64,000 nt of DNA from Clostridia bacterium (GTDB lineage Bacteria; Bacillota; Clostridia; Christensenellales; CAG-138). Location of the stretch: the NCBI GenBank assembly GCA_036651815.1, contig JAVVXB010000001.1:62640-126639 (forward strand). The letters are read 5' to 3'. The notes beneath the pieces were generated by a model. It did not search any database and had not been told where the DNA came from. It saw only the letters and a program-made list of their open reading frames with translations. The position numbers and the translations under genes are program-made. Below, piece after piece: positions 40,898 through 57,064 of the stretch (its first letter is position 1; each line of letters starts with the position of its first letter).

Positions 40898-41308
40898 ATG
40901 AGCTATATTTCCGAAAAGGTTTCATACCTCGACGGCTTGGCCGATGGAATGGAGATTGAAAAGGATCCCAATGGCAAGTTGCTGAAAGGCATTATTGAAG
41001 CGCTTGGCGCCATCGCGGAACAGATGGAAGAACAGGATGAGGTCGTGGACGATCTATCAGACTGCATCGACGATATCTATGACGAGCTTGATGAGTGCTT
41101 CGAGGACGACGATGATGATGATGACGACGATGATGAATTTAACGAGGATGATTTCATTGAAGTCGACTGTCCGCACTGCGGCGAAACCATTTATTTCGAT
41201 GAGAACATGATCGACAGCGAGGATGGATTGATTTGCCCTTGCTGCAACGAATCCATCGAGTTTAAGGTGCCCACCTGCGACTGCGGTTGCCATAGTGACA
41301 AAGAATAA
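40898..41308 (+). CDS. Highly acidic small protein with C-terminal zinc-ribbon (CD1247 N-terminal-domain-like)
   Basis: 136 aa with SD AAAGGAG. Contains a run of 10 Asp, then CPHCGETIYF...CPCCNESIEF (two CxxC pairs) and CDCGCH. Confidence 0.6.
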   Translation: MSYISEKVSYLDGLADGMEIEKDPNGKLLKGIIEALGAIAEQMEEQDEVVDDLSDCIDDIYDELDECFEDDDDDDDDDDEFNEDDFIEVDCPHCGETIYFDENMIDSEDGLICPCCNESIEFKVPTCDCGCHSDKE

Positions 41309-45440: not shown

Positions 45441-45476
45441 AACCCGGCATGGCATAGTTTGCTGTGCCGGGTTTTT
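45441..45476 (+). terminator. Rho-independent terminator after rpoD
   Basis: AACCCGGCA-N15-TGCCGGGTT followed by TTT. Confidence 0.8.
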
Positions 45477-45567
45477 ATGCTGAGATTTAAAAGATACCAT
45501 TTGATGGGATATGGTATAATCATTGCAATTATTGAATCCATCAATGGATGTGAACAGGAGGAACAAC

Positions 45568-47502
45568 ATGATTGCGCAGGCAATAGAAGCATATAAAAGT
45601 GCGCTGCATCTTGGGCAAAGAGAATTTCGCGCATGTGTTGCACATGGACAGAATCCATACCCGGCACTGCTTTCTGATGAACTACCGGATATTAACGCGG
45701 TTCGCCAGGAGCATGCGGGCATAATAGAGGTACCGGCGGAACAATTTATCGGCGTTGGCAACGCATCCCGACAAGAAGCGTTTTCGGCAGGATTCATGCC
45801 GTTGCTTGGCGAAACGTCTGAATTTGCAGGTAAGTGGATTGCCCTTTGCAACGCGCATTTAGAGAATGGCATTCGCGATGCTGTGAAGGCTTATGATTAT
45901 ATGAACCGATACTTTGTGGAAGAAGGCAACAAGCGTGTCAGCGTACTTAAATATCTGGGGGCTTCTCATATTGCGGCGGATGTTACACGTTTGATCCCCC
46001 CGAAAAATGGCGAGAAGGAAAACAACATTTATTATGAGTTTCTGGATTTTCATCGGCAGACCGGTATTCCAGATATCTATTTTTCAGAGGAAGGCCGCTT
46101 TGCAAGGCTATTGCAAACGGTGGGAAAAAACGAAGGCCAAGTATGGACCGACGATGAGAAGATGGCGTTGCGGGCGGCTTATCAGCGTTTCTTTGCGGTC
46201 TTCAATAAATACAACGCCAAAAGATTTCAGGTATCCTGCAGCGATGCGTTCTTGGCATATGCGGACATCTGTGGCTACGAGACACTTCGCACACAAACGG
46301 AAGATGAAATCGCGGCAAATCTTATGCAGATGCGGGACGAAGTGGTCGTTCTCGGACGTACGGATGCCGTGAAACTGAGCCTAAATCCGATGCCGGCTTC
46401 GCAGGCGCCACTGCTGAACAAACTCCTACCGGTGCATTCTGCAGAACTGCGAACTGCATTTTTGTTTGAAAAAACGGTTGAGACTTCGCCATGGACGGCG
46501 GTGCACGATGCTGGCCGACGAAGAATGGAACGAAACTTTAAGGGCAAGGTCGGCACAGTAAGCTACGATCGGGTGATGGTCGGCCAAAATGATGAGGAAA
46601 TTCTTGAACGGGCAATTGCAGAGGGGGCGGATGTAATTTTCACGACCACGCCAAAGATGATATCCGCCAGCGTAAAGGCAGCGGTACAGCATCCGGGGGT
46701 GAAGATCTTAAACTGTTCGCTGAATATGGTGCATCCATCCGTTCGCACCTACTACGCGCGCGTGTATGAAGCCAAGTTTTTAATTGGCGCAATTGCAGGC
46801 GCGATGTGCGAAAATGATACCATTGGTTATTTGGCGGATTATCCAATATTTGGCGTTCCTGCCAACATCAATGCCTTTGCCAAAGGAGTCCAAATGGTCA
46901 ATCCCCGCGCACGCGTTCAGCTTGAATGGACAAGTATCGCGGGACATGATCCGTATACGGCGTTCCGAGATAACGGTGTTACGTTGATTTCAGGGCGGGA
47001 CCTGCGTAGCTTGGAATGGGAAGTGCAGAGCTATGGCCTGTATCAGCAGCATGTCGATGGCGTGGAATGGCTTGCGTTGCCTTACTGGCACTGGGGCAAA
47101 ATGTACACGGAGATTGTTTCCAGCATTTTGTGTGGCACATGGAAAACAGAGGCGACACGCGCTGAGGAGCAGGCAATCAACTATTGGTGGGGGCTGTCCA
47201 GCGGGGTGCTGGACGTGACGTGCAGCGGTAGCTTGCCAACTGGCACCGTGCGGCTGATGGAGGTGCTGCGGGAGTCGATTCTATCCGGTAAGCTGGATGC
47301 CTTGGCACCTTTTCCGGAACCATATTTGACGGAGATGGAACGTACCACACTAAAAAGCCCGTCTCCTGAGGATATTCTCAGGATGGATACGCTGGCGGAG
47401 AACGTGGTGGGGAGTATTCCGGAAATGGAGATACTCATCGAGGAGGCCAAGCCACTTGTAAGATTGCAGGGCCTGCGCGCGCAGGAGGCACAACGGCTAT
47501 GA
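45568..47502 (+). CDS. Cytoplasmic fusion protein: ParB/Srx-like N-terminal region plus BMP (PnrA/Med)-family periplasmic-binding-fold C-terminal domain
   Basis: ATG 45568 follows SD AGGAGGA. There is no signal peptide or lipobox. The N-terminal part has YFVEEGNKRVSVLKYLG. The C-terminal ~330 aa (GADVIFTTTPKM..., YEAKFLIGAIAGAM..IGYLADYPIFGVPANINAFAKGVQMVNP) matches the BMP family. Confidence 0.7.
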   Translation: MIAQAIEAYKSALHLGQREFRACVAHGQNPYPALLSDELPDINAVRQEHAGIIEVPAEQFIGVGNASRQEAFSAGFMPLLGETSEFAGKWIALCNAHLENGIRDAVKAYDYMNRYFVEEGNKRVSVLKYLGASHIAADVTRLIPPKNGEKENNIYYEFLDFHRQTGIPDIYFSEEGRFARLLQTVGKNEGQVWTDDEKMALRAAYQRFFAVFNKYNAKRFQVSCSDAFLAYADICGYETLRTQTEDEIAANLMQMRDEVVVLGRTDAVKLSLNPMPASQAPLLNKLLPVHSAELRTAFLFEKTVETSPWTAVHDAGRRRMERNFKGKVGTVSYDRVMVGQNDEEILERAIAEGADVIFTTTPKMISASVKAAVQHPGVKILNCSLNMVHPSVRTYYARVYEAKFLIGAIAGAMCENDTIGYLADYPIFGVPANINAFAKGVQMVNPRARVQLEWTSIAGHDPYTAFRDNGVTLISGRDLRSLEWEVQSYGLYQQHVDGVEWLALPYWHWGKMYTEIVSSILCGTWKTEATRAEEQAINYWWGLSSGVLDVTCSGSLPTGTVRLMEVLRESILSGKLDALAPFPEPYLTEMERTTLKSPSPEDILRMDTLAENVVGSIPEMEILIEEAKPLVRLQGLRAQEAQRL

Positions 47503-48155
47503 GTGAGCAGCGGCAGATACGTATTCTTGTCGTGGGTGATGTGGAGGCGAAGTACCTCTGGGACTATTATCAGCCGGGCAGACTGGATGGCATCGGCTTG
47601 ATTCTTGCGGCCGGCGACTTGGATCCACATTATCTTTCATTTCTGGCCACGTTTTCAAAAGGCCCGGTTCTTTATATTCATGGAAACCATGATGACCGGT
47701 ATGCGGAAACGCCGCCGGAAGGCTGCATCTGCATTGAAGACCAGCTATATGTGCATCAGGGCTTGCGGATTGTCGGGCTTGGCGGCTGTTTACGGTATAA
47801 TCAAGGGATCAACCAATACTCGGAGCGCGAGATGATGCGGCGTATCAGACGGTTGCAACTTCCCCTGCTGAGATATGGAGGCTGTGATATTTTGCTGACA
47901 CATGCGCCAGCAAGAGGCCTGCATGACGGCTCGGACCCAACGCATTGCGGATTTCAATGCTTTGTATCGTTTCTGGATCGTTATCAACCCATGTGCTTTG
48001 TGCACAGTCATATTCATCCAAGCTATCTGGACGGATATGCAAGGATAGACACTTATCATGGCGTGCAGATTATCAACGCGTATGAAAAATATATATTTGA
48101 ATTGCCCGTTCCAACAGACAGACAGAAGGGTGGTAATCGGAACGGCCGTGCATAA
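47499..48155 (+). CDS. Calcineurin-like metallophosphoesterase
   Basis: ILVVGDVE, AAGDLD, IHGNHD, LLTHAP and VHSHIH form the ordered metallophosphoesterase motif series. ATGA overlap with the upstream gene. Confidence 0.8.
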   Translation: MSEQRQIRILVVGDVEAKYLWDYYQPGRLDGIGLILAAGDLDPHYLSFLATFSKGPVLYIHGNHDDRYAETPPEGCICIEDQLYVHQGLRIVGLGGCLRYNQGINQYSEREMMRRIRRLQLPLLRYGGCDILLTHAPARGLHDGSDPTHCGFQCFVSFLDRYQPMCFVHSHIHPSYLDGYARIDTYHGVQIINAYEKYIFELPVPTDRQKGGNRNGRA

Positions 48156-48313: not shown

Positions 48314-48955
48314 TCATTTTTGGTAGATGTCAGGATTGATGTAGGATACTGCCTTGCCGACAATGCGGACGTTGCTGCGCGTGGTGACAACCGTAGGGGC
48401 ATAGGATGTGTTTTCGGCCATAAGTACCAACTGGGTATCATTTTTGTAGATACGGCGGATGGACAGTTTATTATCGATGAGTACCGCGGCAATCTCATGA
48501 TTATCCACATCCTCCTGAGCACGGATAAAGACAATATCGCCCTCGTGAACACCAATTTTTTCCATGCTGTCGTCATAGAACAGCAACGTAAAGTCACAAT
48601 GTACATTTGGCGGAAGCTCATCGTAGCAGAGAATATTGCATTTGTCCAGCAGCGTTCCCTTGATGACGGGATTAATGCGTGGCTTGGTGCTGGATTCCGG
48701 CGCATCGGCGATCTCCGTTGCCAGCGGACGTGACACAGGATGCTGGCGGCGCGTCTCATCATCGATTGCTAAATAATCCACGGTGACCTCAAAATAGGCG
48801 GATAACTTTAAAAGCGTGGAGCGTTTTACGTTTTCCGTTCCTTTTGCATAAAAATTCACAATTGTCATGTAGGGAATGCCTGCCTCGCGCGCAAGTTCCG
48901 ACTTGTTCAAACCGCGCTCTTGCATGAGCAAATCCAATTTGTCTGTCATTGTCAT
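48314..48955 (-). CDS. XRE-family HTH plus S24 (LexA-like) peptidase-domain repressor
   Basis: The only minus-strand gene. N-terminal HTH (RGLNKSELAREAGIPYMTIVNFY) and a C-terminal S24 fold with Ser (DDSMEKIG) and Lys (RIVGKAV) at dyad positions. ATG 48955 is preceded by SD GAGGA. Confidence 0.8.
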   Translation of the reverse strand: MTMTDKLDLLMQERGLNKSELAREAGIPYMTIVNFYAKGTENVKRSTLLKLSAYFEVTVDYLAIDDETRRQHPVSRPLATEIADAPESSTKPRINPVIKGTLLDKCNILCYDELPPNVHCDFTLLFYDDSMEKIGVHEGDIVFIRAQEDVDNHEIAAVLIDNKLSIRRIYKNDTQLVLMAENTSYAPTVVTTRSNVRIVGKAVSYINPDIYQK

Positions 48956-48973
48956 TTGTTTATCCTCGGAAAC

Positions 48974-49002
48974 ATCATACGCTAACTGATGCTGTAAAGC
49001 AA
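48974..49002 (-). promoter_or_regulatory. Putative sigma-A promoter for the repressor gene
   Basis: On the minus strand: TTGCTT, a 17-nt spacer, then TATGAT. In plus-strand coordinates the -10 is 48974-48979 and the -35 is 48997-49002. Confidence 0.4.
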
Positions 49003-49055
49003 GAAAAACTACCATACAGCATAGAACATATGTCTATTCCATGACCGGTGGTTGC

Positions 49056-53136: not shown

Positions 53137-54780
53137 TTGCAGATACTCTCTGGTATGGAAGAAATGGGAAAACGACGCGGCTGGTGCAATTTTTTTGCCC
53201 GTATGCGCTTTGACCGGCCAAATGCCGCATTTGAATTACTGGAGACGGAGCATGGACAACCCTCGTTCTGGGGCGGTTGGCAGGAAAACTGCGCCGGGGT
53301 GGATTCTGTACAGCAGACAGCGGATGACGCCATCAATAGGAGTTTAGCGAAAAATCGTCAGCGGTTATCGCGCGAGCTACGTGGGGAGATTAACTCCGAT
53401 TTGATTTTGCGCCCGTTTGTGCTTGGTGGTGCTGTTCCTGCGCTTGCGGCATTTTTAAACGGCATGGCTGATGGAGAACAGATCAATGATTTTATTTTAA
53501 AACCGGGTATGCGCCGTGACTGTATGCAAAACGCTGGGGAGCAGTGGGCGGCTTTTGCACTTGAAAATGTTTTTGCTATGCAGGAAGCGGAGCTCTCCAG
53601 CAGTTGGGGGACAGCCAAAGAAGCCATTGAAGAAGGCAGGACGGTCGTTTTTATCGAGGGAGATATCAGCGCGGTACTGATGGATACCCGTGGTTTTGCG
53701 AGCCGCTCGGTGACCACGCCACAGAATGAGGTCGTGATCCTTGGGCCACATGAGGCGTTTACGGAGAATATTCGAACGAACGTGACGCTGATCCGCCGCA
53801 TTATCAAAACGGACGATCTGGTCTGCGAATTTCGGAAATCCGGTGGAAAAAACAACAATCGGATTGCAATTTTATATCGGGATGGCCTAGCAAATCCAAG
53901 CTTGATCAATGAAGTCAAGCGCAGGTTCGCAGCCGTTGATACGCTGATGGTGTTATCTATCGGCACGTTGGAGCAGTTGACGGAAGCGCATCCGTTTTCA
54001 CCGCTGCCGCAGTCGCTGACTACGGAGCGGCCGGATCGAGTGGCATCGTATCTGATGCAGGGGCATGTGGCGGTACTGTGTGAGGGCAGTCCGTTCAGCA
54101 ACGTAATGCCAGCGACGCTCTTTGCCATCATGAGCTCCGGCGAGGACGCCTATCTGCGTCAGCCAGTGGGGACGATCGTGCGGATCGTACGGTATGTGGG
54201 TGCATTTCTGTCCATCATCATGCCCGCTTACTTTCTTGCACTGGCGCTGCATCATCAGGGCATGCTTTCCGGAGAGGTGCTGGCGACGGTGATTGCATCG
54301 CGCAATATGGTATTTTTACCACTGGGCGTAGAGATGCTCTTTCTGCTGTTTGTGTTCCAACTTGTCCGACAAGCCGGCATCAGCGTACCGGGGGCAATGG
54401 GACAGAGCATTGGCATTATCGGTGGCCTGATTCTTGGACAGGCGGCAGTGAGCGCCAATATTGTCAGTAAGGTGGTGCTGATAATCGTTGCGTTAGCTGG
54501 GCTAGGCAATTTCTGCATTCCCGATTACAACACGCAGTTGGCGGCGGCTTATTACCGCATCACACTGGCCATGTTTGCATGGCTGGGCGGATTATTGGGA
54601 CTTTCCTGTGCGCTGCTGATTACCATTGCGATGTTGTCCAGTCTCAAGTCGTATGGCGTGCCGTTTCTGACACCGGTTTCTCCAAAAACATACGCGAAGG
54701 GTCCGACGGTTTTACGTGGAAGGGTAGAGATGCATCTGCGACCCACGGATTATATCAATGGTAGGAGGAGAAAGCCATGA
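53137..54780 (+). CDS. Spore germinant receptor A subunit (GerA/GerAA family)
   Basis: Soluble N-terminal domain plus 4-5 C-terminal TM helices. ILGPHEAFTENIRTNVTLIRRII, TERPDRVASYLMQGHVAVL and SPFSNVMPATLF are GerA-family signatures. The start is uncertain (TTG 53137, ATG 53155 or ATG 53164). Confidence 0.85.
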   Translation: MQILSGMEEMGKRRGWCNFFARMRFDRPNAAFELLETEHGQPSFWGGWQENCAGVDSVQQTADDAINRSLAKNRQRLSRELRGEINSDLILRPFVLGGAVPALAAFLNGMADGEQINDFILKPGMRRDCMQNAGEQWAAFALENVFAMQEAELSSSWGTAKEAIEEGRTVVFIEGDISAVLMDTRGFASRSVTTPQNEVVILGPHEAFTENIRTNVTLIRRIIKTDDLVCEFRKSGGKNNNRIAILYRDGLANPSLINEVKRRFAAVDTLMVLSIGTLEQLTEAHPFSPLPQSLTTERPDRVASYLMQGHVAVLCEGSPFSNVMPATLFAIMSSGEDAYLRQPVGTIVRIVRYVGAFLSIIMPAYFLALALHHQGMLSGEVLATVIASRNMVFLPLGVEMLFLLFVFQLVRQAGISVPGAMGQSIGIIGGLILGQAAVSANIVSKVVLIIVALAGLGNFCIPDYNTQLAAAYYRITLAMFAWLGGLLGLSCALLITIAMLSSLKSYGVPFLTPVSPKTYAKGPTVLRGRVEMHLRPTDYINGRRRKP

Positions 54781-55871
54781 ACCTGCGGGAAGGAAGAATC
54801 GGACGGCAGGAAACCGCAGCGGTGGCATTGATTGCCTGTACAATCTGCGGCATATTTTCAATGAATACCGAAAACTTTTACAGACAGGGGAATTCTTCGT
54901 ATATTTCCAGCGCACTATCGGCAGGATTATCGCTGCTGGCTTTTTTCCTGATTGCAGAAGCGATGCGGAGGAAGCACTGCCGGAATCTAGCGGCATTGTA
55001 CCGCATGGCATATGGACGCATACTGGCGATTCCGCTGTCGTTTGTGACGTTGCTGATGCTGATCTATTCTGCGATTATGCCGCTTGATCGTCTGCTGATT
55101 ATTCTGTGCCGCTATGTGTTTATTGAAACAACAGCGCAGCAAGTGATGCTGTATATGACAGCATGCGTGGTGTTATTGGCATGGATGGGACTGGAGATTA
55201 TTGCTCGCACAGCTAAAATATTGGTTGGGGTGATTGTCCTTGCTTTTTTCGTCGCATTTTTGATTGCCATTCCTGCCTATGAGGTCTATCGATTATATCC
55301 GCTGCTTGGCAATGGACTTGGATCTACATTTTTGCTGGGGCTAACGGGTATCGCGCGTTTTTTCCCGGGGGTGCTGGCCTTGCTCATCTGCGGCGTTGGC
55401 GTGCAGGGACTGAACAGTGCTGCAACGGGCGCAAACGCGGGCATATTGGGTGGAGGATTACTTACGGTTGGTTCGCAACTTTGCCTTGGGATGACGTATC
55501 CGGCTAGCTTGCTGGCAACCATGCATGCACCAATGTACCGACTCACCATGTCTGTGAAAACGGGAAGCTCATATTTGCGTACAGACAAGCTGCTATTATT
55601 TTTCTGGATGATGGCTGGTCTGCTGGTGGGTGGATTCTATGCATACACGGGGGCGCTACTATACGCGGGCACTGCATACATGCGGGATATCCGTCCGGCG
55701 GCGGCGGCGGTTGGTCTGTCCATCGGTGCACTGACATTGATTGGATACTTGCAGTTTGCATGGTTTGAAAGCATCATGTTGTTTTTGCACGTCTACGCTT
55801 GGGCATTGCTGCTGCTACCGCCGATGATGGCAGCGATGATTGTAAGCATAAAGCCGGAGCATGCGGAATGA
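54777..55871 (+). CDS. Spore germinant receptor B subunit (GerAB-type, APC-like permease)
   Basis: 364 aa with about 10 TM helices. SD GGAGGAGAAA and ATGA overlap with the A subunit gene. In the operon position expected for a B subunit. Confidence 0.8.
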   Translation: MNLREGRIGRQETAAVALIACTICGIFSMNTENFYRQGNSSYISSALSAGLSLLAFFLIAEAMRRKHCRNLAALYRMAYGRILAIPLSFVTLLMLIYSAIMPLDRLLIILCRYVFIETTAQQVMLYMTACVVLLAWMGLEIIARTAKILVGVIVLAFFVAFLIAIPAYEVYRLYPLLGNGLGSTFLLGLTGIARFFPGVLALLICGVGVQGLNSAATGANAGILGGGLLTVGSQLCLGMTYPASLLATMHAPMYRLTMSVKTGSSYLRTDKLLLFFWMMAGLLVGGFYAYTGALLYAGTAYMRDIRPAAAAVGLSIGALTLIGYLQFAWFESIMLFLHVYAWALLLLPPMMAAMIVSIKPEHAE

Positions 55872-57064
55872 AGAAAATACTATCATTCATCGTCGCTTGC
55901 GCCATTGCAATACCTTCTGTTGGGTGTCTGGAAGCGCATAGCCTGGATCAATATGGGTATGTGATGGGCATTGGATTTGATAAAGGCGAGGTATTGCCGT
56001 ATCGAATTACCTTGATGCTGCAAAATATGCAAATGGGATCGGATGAACAAAAAAACGGCGGGTTCACGCTTATTGACGCAGAATGCAGAAATTTGTTTGA
56101 GGCAATTGAAACACTTTCCGGCAGTTTACCGTTTCAATTGGATTTTGCGCGCACAGCGTTACTTGTCATAGAGTCCTCTCTCTTGCAGGAAGAAGGCGGC
56201 CTGGAACGACTATTGGACCTGTCGCTGCATCACTTGCTGATCCGGTATAATGCAAATGTGTTTGTATCGCTTTCCTCGGCATACGATGCAATGGGAGGGC
56301 TGCAAAACGAATTGGACCCGAATTTATCAAAGATGCAGCAAAATTTCGTGGCATACTCGGAGAGTACAGGACTGATTCCAGTGACCAATTTAATGATGCT
56401 CAGCGAGGAAATGACAGAGAAAACGCATGATCCGATGTTACCGGTGTGCGGCATAACACATGAGGAACAAAAGGTGACGCAAGGAAGGGATAGCGTCGGG
56501 GAAACGCCCTATGCGTATATCGGCGGTAGCTTGCTGATCAAAAGCGGTATGAAGACAGAGCTTGCCGGCGCGGCACTGCTTTCCAACGGGCGGATGGTTG
56601 GCGTGTTGGGTGGACAGAATACACAACTATTGTTGATGGGAAATGGCACGTTTCAATCCGGCCGTATGCAACTGCTGGACCGGAAAGGAAACACAGTCAG
56701 CGTATATTTTGAGAAGGACGGAGAAATGAAGGTTCATCTAACGCTATGGCCGATGCCAAGAGCGATTGTGACGATTCCGCTGACGGCAAACATTGAGTTA
56801 CCGGATCGGTCGATCGAGGAGAGCAAGGAGCGTACGCAGGAAATGATTGCAGAACAGCTCGCGCAAGGAACACAAAAGGTCTTTGCATGCTGCCAAAAGC
56901 ATGGGGCGGATACCTTTGGCTTTGGCAAATATGCAGTGAAACAGTTTTCGCGCACGGTTGATTGGGACCGCTATGATTGGAAAAAGGCGTATCAAGAATT
57001 GAATGCAACCTTCATCTACACGGTGCGGCTGGTGCAAAATCCAGAGAAATCCGCGTTGGAATAG
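55868..57064 (+). CDS. Spore germinant receptor C subunit (Ger(x)C lipoprotein)
   Basis: The internal ATG gives MKKILSFIVACAIAIPSVGC (lipobox), followed by LDQYGYVMGIGFDK, typical of GerAC. ATGA overlap with the B subunit gene. Confidence 0.85.
   Translation: MKKILSFIVACAIAIPSVGCLEAHSLDQYGYVMGIGFDKGEVLPYRITLMLQNMQMGSDEQKNGGFTLIDAECRNLFEAIETLSGSLPFQLDFARTALLVIESSLLQEEGGLERLLDLSLHHLLIRYNANVFVSLSSAYDAMGGLQNELDPNLSKMQQNFVAYSESTGLIPVTNLMMLSEEMTEKTHDPMLPVCGITHEEQKVTQGRDSVGETPYAYIGGSLLIKSGMKTELAGAALLSNGRMVGVLGGQNTQLLLMGNGTFQSGRMQLLDRKGNTVSVYFEKDGEMKVHLTLWPMPRAIVTIPLTANIELPDRSIEESKERTQEMIAEQLAQGTQKVFACCQKHGADTFGFGKYAVKQFSRTVDWDRYDWKKAYQELNATFIYTVRLVQNPEKSALE

Follow-up and report, generated by a model that had tools for sequence, protein, structure and literature searches.

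A predicted cytoplasmic fusion of a ParB/Srx-fold module and a BMP-type domain is encoded together with a dedicated metallophosphoesterase in Clostridia

Introduction

What is a receptor domain of the type that normally binds ligands outside the cell doing in a protein that appears to have no way of leaving it? This question is raised by a two-gene locus in the window analysed here, by which we mean the whole 64,000-nucleotide stretch of DNA from contig JAVVXB010000001.1 of a Clostridia bacterium. The first gene encodes a 644-aa protein whose identical NCBI entry is named 'BMP family ABC transporter substrate-binding protein', and the JGI and NCBI names used for its family also include 'basic membrane lipoprotein Med'. 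The second encodes a small metallophosphoesterase (MPE). A first-pass annotation, made from the letters alone, had read the two as a cytoplasmic, nucleotide-related pair of binding protein and phosphoesterase. Our literature searches on DUF4032, PDC-S10 and the combinations of a ParB-like domain with Bmp or with a metallophosphoesterase found nothing relevant. The features of the locus on which the following sections draw are:

45441..45473, + strand: intrinsic terminator of rpoD, between rpoD and the pair (14-bp stem with 8 GC pairs, then TTTTTAT)
45512..45520, + strand: possible extended -10 element TGgTATAAT for the pair, as read from the sequence alone
45556..45562, + strand: Shine-Dalgarno sequence AGGAGGA, 5 nt 5' of the fusion ATG
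45568..47502, + strand: 644-aa fusion protein (N-module plus BMP domain), predicted to be cytoplasmic (ORF, Pfam, PDB-sequence matches, alignment)
45568..45699, + strand: N-terminal helical hairpin, aa 1-44, part of the conserved N-module (AF2 helix 2-25, pLDDT > 90)
45700..46002, + strand: predicted ParB/Srx-fold core, aa 45-145 (Foldseek on the AF2 model, hhalign to ParB, invariant residues)
45922-45945, + strand: signature E119-G-N-K-R-V-S-V126 within the core (sequence)
46003..46362, + strand: acidic helical domain, DUF4032-like, aa 146-265 (AF2 helices 150-263, hhalign)
46363..46443, + strand: low-confidence linker, aa 266-292 (pLDDT 41-50 in the N-terminal model, 58-64 in the full model)
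46444..47499, + strand: BMP/PnrA-type domain (type I periplasmic-binding-protein fold) of the AtzT/3s99 subgroup, aa 293-644 (Pfam, PDB sequence, Foldseek)
47499..48155, + strand: 218-aa MPE of the MPPED2/'Icc-related' kind, in ATGA overlap with the fusion stop (Pfam, motifs, adjacency)

Results

The fusion gene encodes no export signal

The fusion ORF begins with the ATG at 45568, behind its Shine-Dalgarno sequence and without a leader, just as first read, and the peptides then quoted from it (YFVEEGNKRVSVLKYLG at aa 115-131, GADVIFTTTP, YEAKFLIGAIAGAM and IGYLADYPIFGVPANINAF) were all found. The sole in-frame 5' extension, from a TTG at 45523, would add MQLLNPSMDVNRRNN, which is hydrophilic and holds no signal peptide, and the N-termini of the 28 aligned homologous sequences share the same start point; a missed upstream start supplying a lipoprotein signal, one of three cases that the first-pass annotation had itself named as fatal to its reading, was thus not found. 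Neither a hydrophobic leader nor a lipobox occurs in the window protein and its 27 homologues (15-residue hydropathy maximum ≤1.5), which supports the proposed cytoplasmic location.

The candidate -10 element was missed by a two-hexamer promoter scan because of its poor -35. In a k-mer survey of the regions upstream of 61 orthologous loci, extended -10-like words were the only recurrent ones, and no conserved operator-like motif was detected. A search for riboswitches or leader RNAs returned no Rfam match in the window (E ≤ 1) or upstream of 8 orthologous loci.

An N-terminal module with a predicted ParB/Srx-fold core

With the N-terminus as query, neither Pfam nor NCBIfam nor PDB sequences gave a significant match, and its fold became visible only through structure prediction followed by Foldseek, and through hhalign. 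The AF2 model of aa 1-290 (pLDDT 85) found its best PDB matches in Noc, KorB, ParB, Srx, SbnI and PadC; the best 50 all have the ParB/Srx fold, four of them at E ≤ 1e-3, with E-values against ParB, Noc and KorB running from 8e-5 to 4e-3, and the matches in BFVD are proteins labelled ParB/Sulfiredoxin. The best rigid superpositions of the roughly 90-residue core were obtained with SbnI (PDB: 5ujd; rmsd 2.3 Å over 91 columns) and Srx (PDB: 6ky4; rmsd 2.8 Å over 88 columns, TM 0.66), from which, as from SerK, the module differs in its flanking domains, identity being 12-19%. The hhalign alignment to ParB, which has a probability of only 35% and an E-value of 4e-4, places G120-N-K-R123 onto the phosphate-binding G77-E-R-R80 of B. 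subtilis Spo0J and R68 onto the Arg of QPR, and ends at aa 142, before the helix-turn-helix region. ParB_N (PF02195) itself stays below the gathering score, matching one of 20 members at E 0.037, with a 'faint' precomputed match in one Fusobacterial relative. As modelled, aa 45-145 are a ParB/Srx fold, and what had begun as a guess from a motif is now backed by the profile alignment and, for the most part, by the predicted structure and its Foldseek matches.

Conservation centres on the signature: within the N-module family alignment G120, K122 and R123 are invariant and N121 is nearly so, and the basic residues R68, K89, K122 and R123 are kept across the Clostridial and Fusobacterial families. 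The module further shares with ParB, Noc and KorB the IP..I first strand and the 'V.R' last strand, but differs from them in a 13-residue family-specific insert (NFxP...[KR]W), in the acidic character of the domain that follows, in having no helix-turn-helix aligned and in the lack of parS, ParA or any partition context at the pair. Since the module lacks the residues with which ParB canonically hydrolyses CTP (the Gln of QPR has given way to a variable residue, Asn121 replaces the Glu of GERR and the ENLQR box is unaligned), the N-module may bind nucleotides but is not assured to do so. Asn121 also occupies the position of the Srx catalytic Cys.

The helical domain behind the core is acidic, with a median pI of 5.1 and a net charge of -3.5. 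Its link to DUF4032 (PF13224) is indirect: the Pfam model matches neither the window protein nor 19 aligned relatives, even at E 10, and the connection runs through Fusobacterial N-module proteins, 10 of 17 of which are matched by DUF4032 over the GxxR strand and the helical domain (equivalent to residues ~118-264) and which hhalign aligns with the window family over aa 2-237 at a probability of 99.1. The hairpin (aa 1-44) aligns with Fusobacterial and Tsukamurella homologues as well. By these profile comparisons the N-module, comprising the first ~240 aa, is distantly related to DUF4032.

The BMP domain retains the fold of AtzT, with most purine contacts changed

The assignment of the C-terminus to the BMP family holds in sequence and in fold: Pfam Bmp (PF02608) matches at E 1.3e-18 and 67.5 bits (cut-off 24.1), PDB sequence searches align aa 293-588 with AtzT (PDB: 6pi5; E 5e-28) and the Brucella BMP protein (PDB: 3s99; E 7e-25), and Foldseek gives TM 0.76-0.77 at 22-24% identity. 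The domain shares with both the complete two-lobe type I binding-protein fold; unlike them, it is by prediction not exported, is unlinked to a transporter and stands behind a 290-aa cytoplasmic-type module. Regulators of the LacI-family type are among the full-length Foldseek matches of the fusion.

Conservation of the ligand-contacting residues, a check proposed at the outset, is partial. When AtzT is aligned by sequence alone, its stacking Tyr45 falls on the invariant Trp309 and its hydroxyl-bearing Ser97 on the invariant Thr361, whereas guanine contacts are replaced at four of seven positions (Phe98, Glu165, Asn169 and Trp194), with Glu165 becoming Gly429, Trp194 a variable Gly459 and Phe98, which makes a backbone NH contact, Pro362; AtzT Asn218 and Asn220 do not align with the domain. 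Because the purine contacts of AtzT are mostly not kept, the BMP domain may sense nucleosides, as had been suggested, but such a role is unproven.

The metallophosphoesterase is probably active

The fusion stop and the MPE start overlap in an ATGA at 47499-47502, and Pfam Metallophos (PF00149) matches at 24.9 bits (cut-off 21.5). Across 77 orthologues D14-x-E16, G39-D40, G62-N-H-D65, H135 and H169-x-H171-x-H173 are invariant, so the description of a complete enzyme overlapping the fusion stop was correct; since all metal-ligand and catalytic residues are among these invariant positions, the MPE is probably active. All homologues that a search with the MPE retrieved were orthologues under generic names. 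Its closest relative of known structure is MPPED2 (PDB: 3rl4; E 1.6e-4), the C-terminal half alone being aligned. With MPPED2/239FB and the 'Icc-related' proteins (COG2129) the MPE shares the pattern THxP..G..D...G...(17-20)...hGHhH and the invariant GD, GNHD, H and GHxH elements; it differs in its motif I, which is D-x-E (D14, E16) instead of the canonical D-x-H, and in the family-specific invariant blocks PPEGCxCIED and GLGGxxRYxxGxxQY. MPPED2 is a phosphodiesterase of cyclic nucleotides and binds AMP and GMP. We know of no N-module neighbour of MPPED2 like the one that is obligate for the MPE family of the window.

The pairing is conserved and the remaining neighbourhood is not

Gene context was compared across 80 species-level genomes of Lachnospiraceae and Oscillospiraceae, the window's own contig being counted apart. 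The same MPE lies 3' of the fusion in 78 of these (median gap 9 nt, often with the ATGA overlap) and is missing from the adjacent position in two, in keeping with the pair first proposed and with a dedicated partner; orthologues from the two families are 40-48% identical. No third gene is conserved, every other neighbour cluster (MatE, ABC_tran, FtsY/Ffh, SMC, PALP, P-type ATPase, Map and FolE among them) being confined to at most 12 of the 80 loci, all of them housekeeping. Conserved neighbours in the 80 loci and the window contig include neither an ABC permease nor an ATPase, ABC_tran ORFs occurring in 12 loci at scattered distances, and the earlier observation that transporter genes are not adjacent therefore extends beyond the window. 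The position directly downstream of rpoD is real at the window locus, but the strong hairpin terminator parts the two genes, and linkage to dnaG-rpoD was absent from all 80 other genomes and is therefore incidental; the housekeeping neighbours are rpoD in the window, smc-ftsY/ylxM-ffh in Blautia, rplA-nusG in Collinsella and dnaE in Leptotrichiaceae. Relatives occur in no fewer than 588 species-level genomes, a search with the N-module alone yields 934 clusters at 50% identity, and gut carriers include Blautia, Dorea, Gemmiger, Ruminococcus, Fournierella and Collinsella.

More distant relatives extend the pairing across three phyla. Collinsella has the same fusion and MPE. In Fusobacteriota the MPE lies directly upstream of an N-module protein with an unrelated C-terminus at 5 of 5 loci, and this C-terminal domain has no Pfam, PDB-sequence or BMP-profile match; the MPE beside the N-module in Cetobacterium belongs to the same subfamily (E 3e-22). 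In Tsukamurella an MPE, again of the same subfamily (hhalign E 4e-34), overlaps a 288-aa protein that consists of the N-module only. Gene order and C-terminal domain thus change while adjacency is retained, which argues for a functional or physical partnership. Since the MPE accompanies the N-module even where the BMP domain has been replaced (Fusobacteriota) or is absent (Tsukamurella), the system does not revolve around the BMP domain; its conserved core is the MPE together with the first ~240 aa of the fusion.

Some relatives have contexts related to sugars, namely glgP and a sugar ABC system in Cetobacterium, ugpC and an alpha-amylase in Tsukamurella and a Cof-type HAD phosphatase in Leptotrichiaceae; none was seen in the 80 Clostridial loci. 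Bacillus phage G encodes a stand-alone N-module (gp57), followed 21 nt later by a gene of the dUTPase_2 family, a single case. Two further candidates were rejected: an MPE fused onto long family members (733-885 aa), where there was no similarity, and an MPE from a Rubrobacter ars cluster, which belongs to a different subfamily.

Discussion

The reading we favour, to which we give a probability of roughly 0.4, is that the pair is the Clostridial form of a conserved, nucleotide-directed two-protein module of the cytoplasm, into which a BMP domain has been recruited as an internal sensor. One partner would be the ~240-aa N-module, made up of the hairpin, the ParB/Srx core with its [DE]-G-N/H-[KH]-R-[VI]-S-[VI] signature and the acidic DUF4032-like helical domain; the other would be the dedicated small MPE, drawn from one specific subfamily. 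The N-module may bind an NTP-type ligand in the phosphate-binding pocket of the ParB/Srx fold and would work with the MPE, probably as a complex, either presenting a substrate to it or gating the reaction in which it hydrolyses a nucleotide-type phospho(di)ester. The N-module of Clostridia and Coriobacteriia would have gained a BMP-type receptor domain that lost its export signal and came to act inside the cell, as a small-molecule sensor or as a domain that captures a substrate, its ligand probably being purine- or nucleoside-like and held otherwise than guanine is in AtzT. The nucleotide theme is suggested because the BMP domain falls in the purine-base-binding AtzT/3s99 subgroup and because gp57 of phage G lies beside a dUTPase_2-family gene. 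As an analogy only, LacI and PurR likewise use a cytoplasmic type I binding-protein fold as a ligand sensor behind a head domain, but here the head is a predicted ParB/Srx fold in place of the LacI helix-turn-helix and the partner is an enzyme. The essentials of the first-pass annotation (cytoplasmic location, folds, pairing and absence of transporter genes) have stood, nucleoside sensing is no more than a candidate function, and a cytoplasmic, nucleotide-related binding and phosphoesterase pair is still, as an inference, the best reading of the locus.

A small-molecule kinase/phosphatase pair, in which the ParB/Srx core phosphorylates a metabolite held on the C-terminal domain and the MPE removes or processes that phosphate, is an unlikely alternative that draws on several of the same observations. 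Srx and the serine kinases SbnI and SerK show the fold to be capable of ATP-dependent phosphotransfer on non-DNA substrates, and SbnI and Srx are among the best superpositions of the core, which is followed by an acidic helical domain that recalls the SbnI/SerK layout; the C-terminal domain swaps between lineages, as expected of a substrate-binding domain, and the sugar-related contexts, including the Cof-type HAD phosphatase, would fit a metabolite substrate. Yet such a pair in one operon would run a futile cycle unless the MPE acted on another bond, no catalytic residue could be assigned, the minimal form in Tsukamurella lacks any substrate-binding domain, and the sugar contexts are missing from the Clostridial loci.

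An improbable alternative is a ligand-controlled DNA switch, with the N-module acting as a CTP-dependent ParB-type clamp or regulator and the BMP domain as its effector sensor, following the logic of LacI and PurR. Its appeal is that the best Foldseek matches, to Noc, KorB and ParB, extend over 230-240 columns as against ~90 for the Srx core, and that the LacI family, found among the fold matches, likewise joins a DNA-binding head to a type I binding-protein fold. Those long alignments, however, have an rmsd of 14-20 Å and TM 0.2-0.3, so that only one domain truly superposes, and the ParB profile alignment stops short of the helix-turn-helix. With a pI of 5.6 as a whole and 5.1 in the helical domain, the protein does not look like one that binds DNA; the lack of a conserved operator-like motif also counts against a switch, which would leave the obligate MPE partner unexplained.

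A role in anti-phage defence or conflict, with a ParB/DUF262-like NTPase sensor and a phosphoesterase effector, seems very improbable. In its favour are a match between the MPE and the PADLOC candidate PDC-S10 (E 9e-11), a weak one between the EGNKR region and PD-Lambda-5_A (E 0.005) and the stand-alone N-module of phage G; against this, PDC-S10 is itself a putative system, the metagenomic 'phage' contigs that carry the pair are all unverified, the pair is present in at least 588 species-level genomes, its orthologues are 40-48% identical between Lachnospiraceae and Oscillospiraceae, and its neighbours are housekeeping and syntenic, with no defence islands or mobile elements. The reading as an ordinary ABC-transporter substrate-binding lipoprotein, which Pfam Bmp and the names given in databases would favour, is effectively refuted because none of the 28 homologues has an export signal, a 290-aa cytoplasmic-type module precedes the BMP domain and the conserved partner in the 80 loci is the MPE rather than a permease or ATPase.

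Returning to the nucleotide-directed module, we would go one step further only tentatively: the N-module and MPE might constitute an unrecognised, phylum-spanning system with a new nucleotide-type activity, in which the BMP domain was captured in gut Clostridia and Collinsella for control by an intracellular metabolite.

The family is large and is found in the most abundant Firmicutes of the human gut and in Collinsella, and its uniform misannotation as a transporter receptor distorts predictions of transport and purine salvage in metabolic models of the microbiome. It is a clear instance of a periplasmic-type receptor domain turned to a cytoplasmic use and forms a further branch of the ParB/Srx fold, whose known chemistry comprises a CTP switch, phosphorylation of sulfinate or serine, and nuclease activity, and has brought surprises more than once. 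Its strict pairing with one MPE subfamily makes it a testable two-protein system that comes in naturally minimal (Tsukamurella, 288 aa) and extended forms, and the capture of a receptor domain, if true, would mean that the ParB/Srx and BMP folds have both been put to a new use.

Results

A fusion gene and a metallophosphoesterase gene behind rpoD

The first-pass annotation had described, directly downstream of rpoD, a leaderless 644-aa protein with a BMP-like C-terminal domain and a ParB/sulfiredoxin (Srx)-like N-terminus (the fusion), coupled to a metallophosphoesterase (MPE). The open reading frame, its Shine-Dalgarno sequence, the ATGA-type overlap between the two genes and the Bmp and Metallophos matches were all confirmed at 45568-48155, where the features are arranged as follows.

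45405: end of rpoD, with a strong intrinsic terminator 3' of the gene
45441-45473: the rpoD intrinsic terminator, a 14-bp stem followed by a T-run
45512-45520: TGgTATAAT word, read in the sequence
45568-47502, forward strand: fusion gene, 644 aa; AGGAGGA 5 nt before the ATG at 45568, stop at 47500-47502
47499-48155, forward strand: MPE gene, 218 aa; its ATG at 47499 is overlapped by the fusion stop

Since the terminator and the TGgTATAAT word both lie between rpoD and the fusion gene, the sequence suggests that the pair probably has its own promoter. A LexA-like repressor gene (48314-49015, reverse strand; HTH plus Peptidase_S24) lies convergently right after the MPE gene, and is not conserved beside the pair in other genomes. 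Further on, beyond genes for malic enzyme and pyruvate phosphate dikinase, lies a spore germination receptor operon (53137-57064, forward strand; GerA, spore permease and GerAC), which marks the organism as a spore-former. Upstream, at 40898-41308 (forward strand), efp and an HD-domain (dGTPase-like) gene flank the gene for an extremely acidic 136-aa protein with a nine-Asp run and CxxC...CxxC zinc-ribbon-like motifs, for which the contig annotation has no Pfam match.

The N-terminal module is predicted to have a ParB/Srx fold

Sequence searches of Pfam, NCBIfam and the PDB with the fusion N-terminus gave no match, and the Pfam ParB_N and DUF4032 models both failed to match the fusion. Residues 1-290 were modelled with AF2 from a 20-sequence alignment; the model was confident (pLDDT 85, pTM 0.75) and predicts a helical hairpin at 2-38, an alpha/beta core at 46-143 and a helical domain at 150-263, followed by a disordered linker; the first ~240 residues are referred to here as the N-module. 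When this model was compared with the PDB using Foldseek, the best matches were exclusively ParB/Srx-fold proteins, bearing out at the level of predicted structure what had been proposed from a GxxR-like motif. They included Noc, KorB and ParB (E 8e-5 to 4e-3), sulfiredoxin (88 columns, rmsd 2.8 Å, TM 0.66), the serine kinase/regulator SbnI (91 columns, rmsd 2.3 Å) and PadC, and a viral structure library agreed with the PDB. The SbnI match would fit a SerK/SbnI-like small-molecule kinase paired with a phosphatase, a reading that we consider unlikely.

A profile-profile alignment of the fusion family with three ParB sequences from PDB entries was weak (E 4e-4, probability 35%), with motifs in register: IEVPAEQFIG falls opposite IKIADLRPNP, R68 opposite the QPR Arg, GIRD(P) opposite GILQP, and YFVEEGNKRVSV of the fusion opposite YDIVAGERRFRA of ParB. 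This register places G120, K122 and R123 in ParB's GxxR phosphate-binding loop. The catalytic Gln and Glu of ParB CTPase clamps are absent from the fusion family (Asn121 takes the Glu position), a 13-residue insert, NFxP...KW, is specific to it, and the alignment stops ahead of ParB's helix-turn-helix, which could not be confirmed in the fusion. Because both the helical domain (median pI 5.1) and the whole protein (pI 5.6) are acidic, the fusion is also a poor fit to a DNA-binding ParB. A reading that the shared fold would suit, a ParB-type CTP switch acting on DNA and equipped with an effector domain, is improbable on these grounds.

The MPE is a conserved partner of the fusion

The MPE scored 24.9 bits with Pfam Metallophos, above the threshold of 21.5, and all of its metal-binding and catalytic positions (D14-x-E16, G39-D40, G62-N-H-D65, H135 and H169/H171/H173) are invariant across 77 orthologues, with Glu in place of the canonical His in motif I. 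Of the solved structures, MPPED2 is the nearest to it (E 1.6e-4), with only the C-terminal half aligning. The MPE also matches PADLOC PDC-S10 (E 9e-11); PDC-S10 is itself an untested single-gene candidate, and we see little prospect that the pair is a defence module.

Relatives of the full-length fusion number in the thousands, and the best 120 range from 634 to 681 aa, with Bmp as their only annotation. The N-terminal 290 residues alone returned 934 clusters at 50% identity; the 150 listed are mostly ~640-aa fusions, and the shorter ones were taken as fragments. With one genome scanned per species, at least 588 relatives were confirmed, and the best 80 of them come from Lachnospiraceae and Oscillospiraceae/Ruminococcaceae. 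In 78 of these 80 loci the MPE (46-58% identity) lies directly downstream on the same strand, at a median gap of 9 nt and frequently with a 4-nt overlap. The two loci without it are L021 and L046 (Blautia sp. BIOML-A1), with 0.8-1.3 kb of downstream sequence covered; at L046 a PLP-dependent enzyme gene stands in its place, which suggests a local rearrangement. The remaining neighbour families are generic, each present in at most 12 of the 80 loci (MatE, ABC_tran, FtsY/Ffh, SMC, PLP enzyme, P-type ATPase, Map and FolE), and in Blautia the pair sits in stable smc-ftsY ... ylxM-ffh surroundings. The association with rpoD in the first-pass annotation proved incidental, as dnaG and rpoD adjoin the pair in the window's own genome only. 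Searches for a riboswitch and for a conserved motif upstream of the pair found neither.

The BMP domain is intracellular

The Pfam Bmp match covers residues 296-455 (E 1.3e-18), and over residues 293-588 the fusion is similar to binding proteins of solved structure, AtzT (6pi5, E 5e-28) and Brucella BMP (3s99, E 7e-25). In a full-length AF2 model (pLDDT 81.7) the BMP region superimposes on these two with TM 0.76-0.77, followed by PnrA, RfuA, Lbp, BmpD and Med. AtzT itself retained guanine during purification. The cleft is well conserved within the family. AtzT contacts guanine through Tyr45, Ser97, Phe98 (backbone NH), Glu165, Trp194, Asn218 and Asn220 (PMC6834077), and we transferred these positions by phmmer alignment onto a 28-sequence alignment of the fusion family. 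Conservation of the nucleoside-contacting residues had been raised in the first pass: Tyr45 and Ser97 correspond to invariant Trp309 and Thr361, Phe98, Glu165 and Trp194 are replaced by invariant Pro362, nearly invariant Gly429 and variable Gly459, and the two Asn positions fall in an unalignable stretch. By this sequence mapping, the cleft does not appear to be an AtzT-type guanine site.

A missed upstream start supplying a signal peptide was looked for; the sole possible 5' extension, from TTG 45523, adds 15 hydrophilic residues. Homologues begin at the point equivalent to ATG 45568, and a hydrophobic leader was found in none of them. BMP transporter receptors are defined by export and by transporter genes, and the fusion, with no leader and an MPE as its conserved neighbour, has neither: it is a cytoplasmic three-part protein and not a transporter component, as had been proposed. 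The names carried by its best 120 relatives ('BMP family ABC transporter substrate-binding protein' or 'basic membrane lipoprotein Med') imply a transporter receptor, which is extremely improbable.

The pair recurs in other phyla

More distant relatives came from searches of records for plasmids, chromids and phages. The Bmp fusion recurs in Collinsella aerofaciens (Actinomycetota), where it is 638 aa long, its gene overlaps that of the MPE and the pair adjoins rplA-rplK-nusG. In Cetobacterium somerae (Fusobacteriota) a same-subfamily MPE (28% identity, E 3e-22) sits just upstream of the gene for a 562-aa protein whose only part in common with the window's fusion is the N-module (BLASTP E 4e-12), and four more Fusobacterial relatives have an MPE in this position. 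Across 17 Fusobacterial proteins the match to the Clostridial family is confined to residues 2-237 (hhalign probability 99.1, E 1e-18), while their C-terminal ~320 residues matched nothing searched. Pfam DUF4032 matches 10 of the 17, covering the GxxR strand and the helical domain; together with the predicted structure, this shows the N-module to be a divergent, DUF4032-related ParB/Srx-fold family.

In Tsukamurella tyrosinosolvens a same-subfamily MPE (hhalign E 4e-34) overlaps a gene, annotated 'ParB', whose 288-aa product is the N-module alone (probability 96). In Bacillus phage G (locus JN638751.1, 9024-10465) the N-module stands alone as gp57 (202 aa, motif DGNHRLSV; hhalign probability 96, E 3e-9; Foldseek E 2e-8), followed after 21 nt by gp58, a dUTPase_2-family gene; two genes upstream is gp55, a PgpA-like phosphatase. 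A 159-aa Rubrobacter tropicus protein (NZ_CP045120.1, 3812-4291) retains only the ParB/Srx core (hhalign probability 97), within an arsenic-resistance cluster (ArsR, permease, ArsM, ArsR, MPE and two ArsC) whose MPE is unrelated and was rejected as a partner. All distant relatives share with the Clostridia the motif NFxP...[KR]W and, after it, the signature [DE]-G-[NH]-[KH]-R-[VIL]-S-[VI].

Three further records most likely reflect wrong binning or classification of contigs and not true occurrences. The Clostridia-type pair is on JAWZDV010000080.1, which bears the label 'MAG: Bacteroides thetaiotaomicron', and, with both genes, on MT836456.1, a metagenomic 'Bacteriophage sp.' record that is unverified; BFVD A0A8S5LUW4 ('Podoviridae sp.') contains a fragment of the fusion protein only.

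The Tsukamurella pair (NZ_LR134459.1, 3160-4690) directly follows a sugar ABC operon (ugpC) and adjoins alpha-amylase-family and LacI genes; the Cetobacterium pair (NZ_CP092520.1, 1-7542) directly follows glycogen phosphorylase, sugar ABC permeases and TrmB; and in Leptotrichiaceae a Cof/S6PP-type HAD phosphatase gene lies just downstream. These alpha-glucan and sugar-uptake contexts in two unrelated phyla, with the HAD phosphatase, hint at a possible carbohydrate-phosphate link.

Discussion

Each piece of the pair can be assigned to an established superfamily: ParB/Srx, BMP type I binding proteins or calcineurin-like MPEs. We found no paper on DUF4032, on the fusion architecture or on the pair, in a search of incomplete coverage whose silence is not proof; that the pair carries a new activity is a tentative suggestion. 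The functional core lies in the ParB/Srx-DUF4032 module and the MPE, not in the BMP domain: the genes for the N-module and for one MPE subfamily have stayed paired through changes of gene order, C-terminal domain and phylum.

A nucleotide theme is suggested circumstantially by the purine-binding BMP subgroup, the nearest relative of the MPE and the dUTPase-like neighbour in phage G. Our main reading, to which we give a probability of about 0.4, leaving to something not yet imagined what the alternatives do not take up, is that of a nucleotide-directed pair. The fusion and the MPE would act jointly, probably in a complex, in which the conserved basic residues, with the GxxR loop that has been kept, may bind a nucleotide-type phosphate ligand and the MPPED2-related MPE would hydrolyse a nucleotide-type phospho(di)ester, while the BMP domain, a lineage-specific part, would sense a ligand or capture substrate inside the cell.
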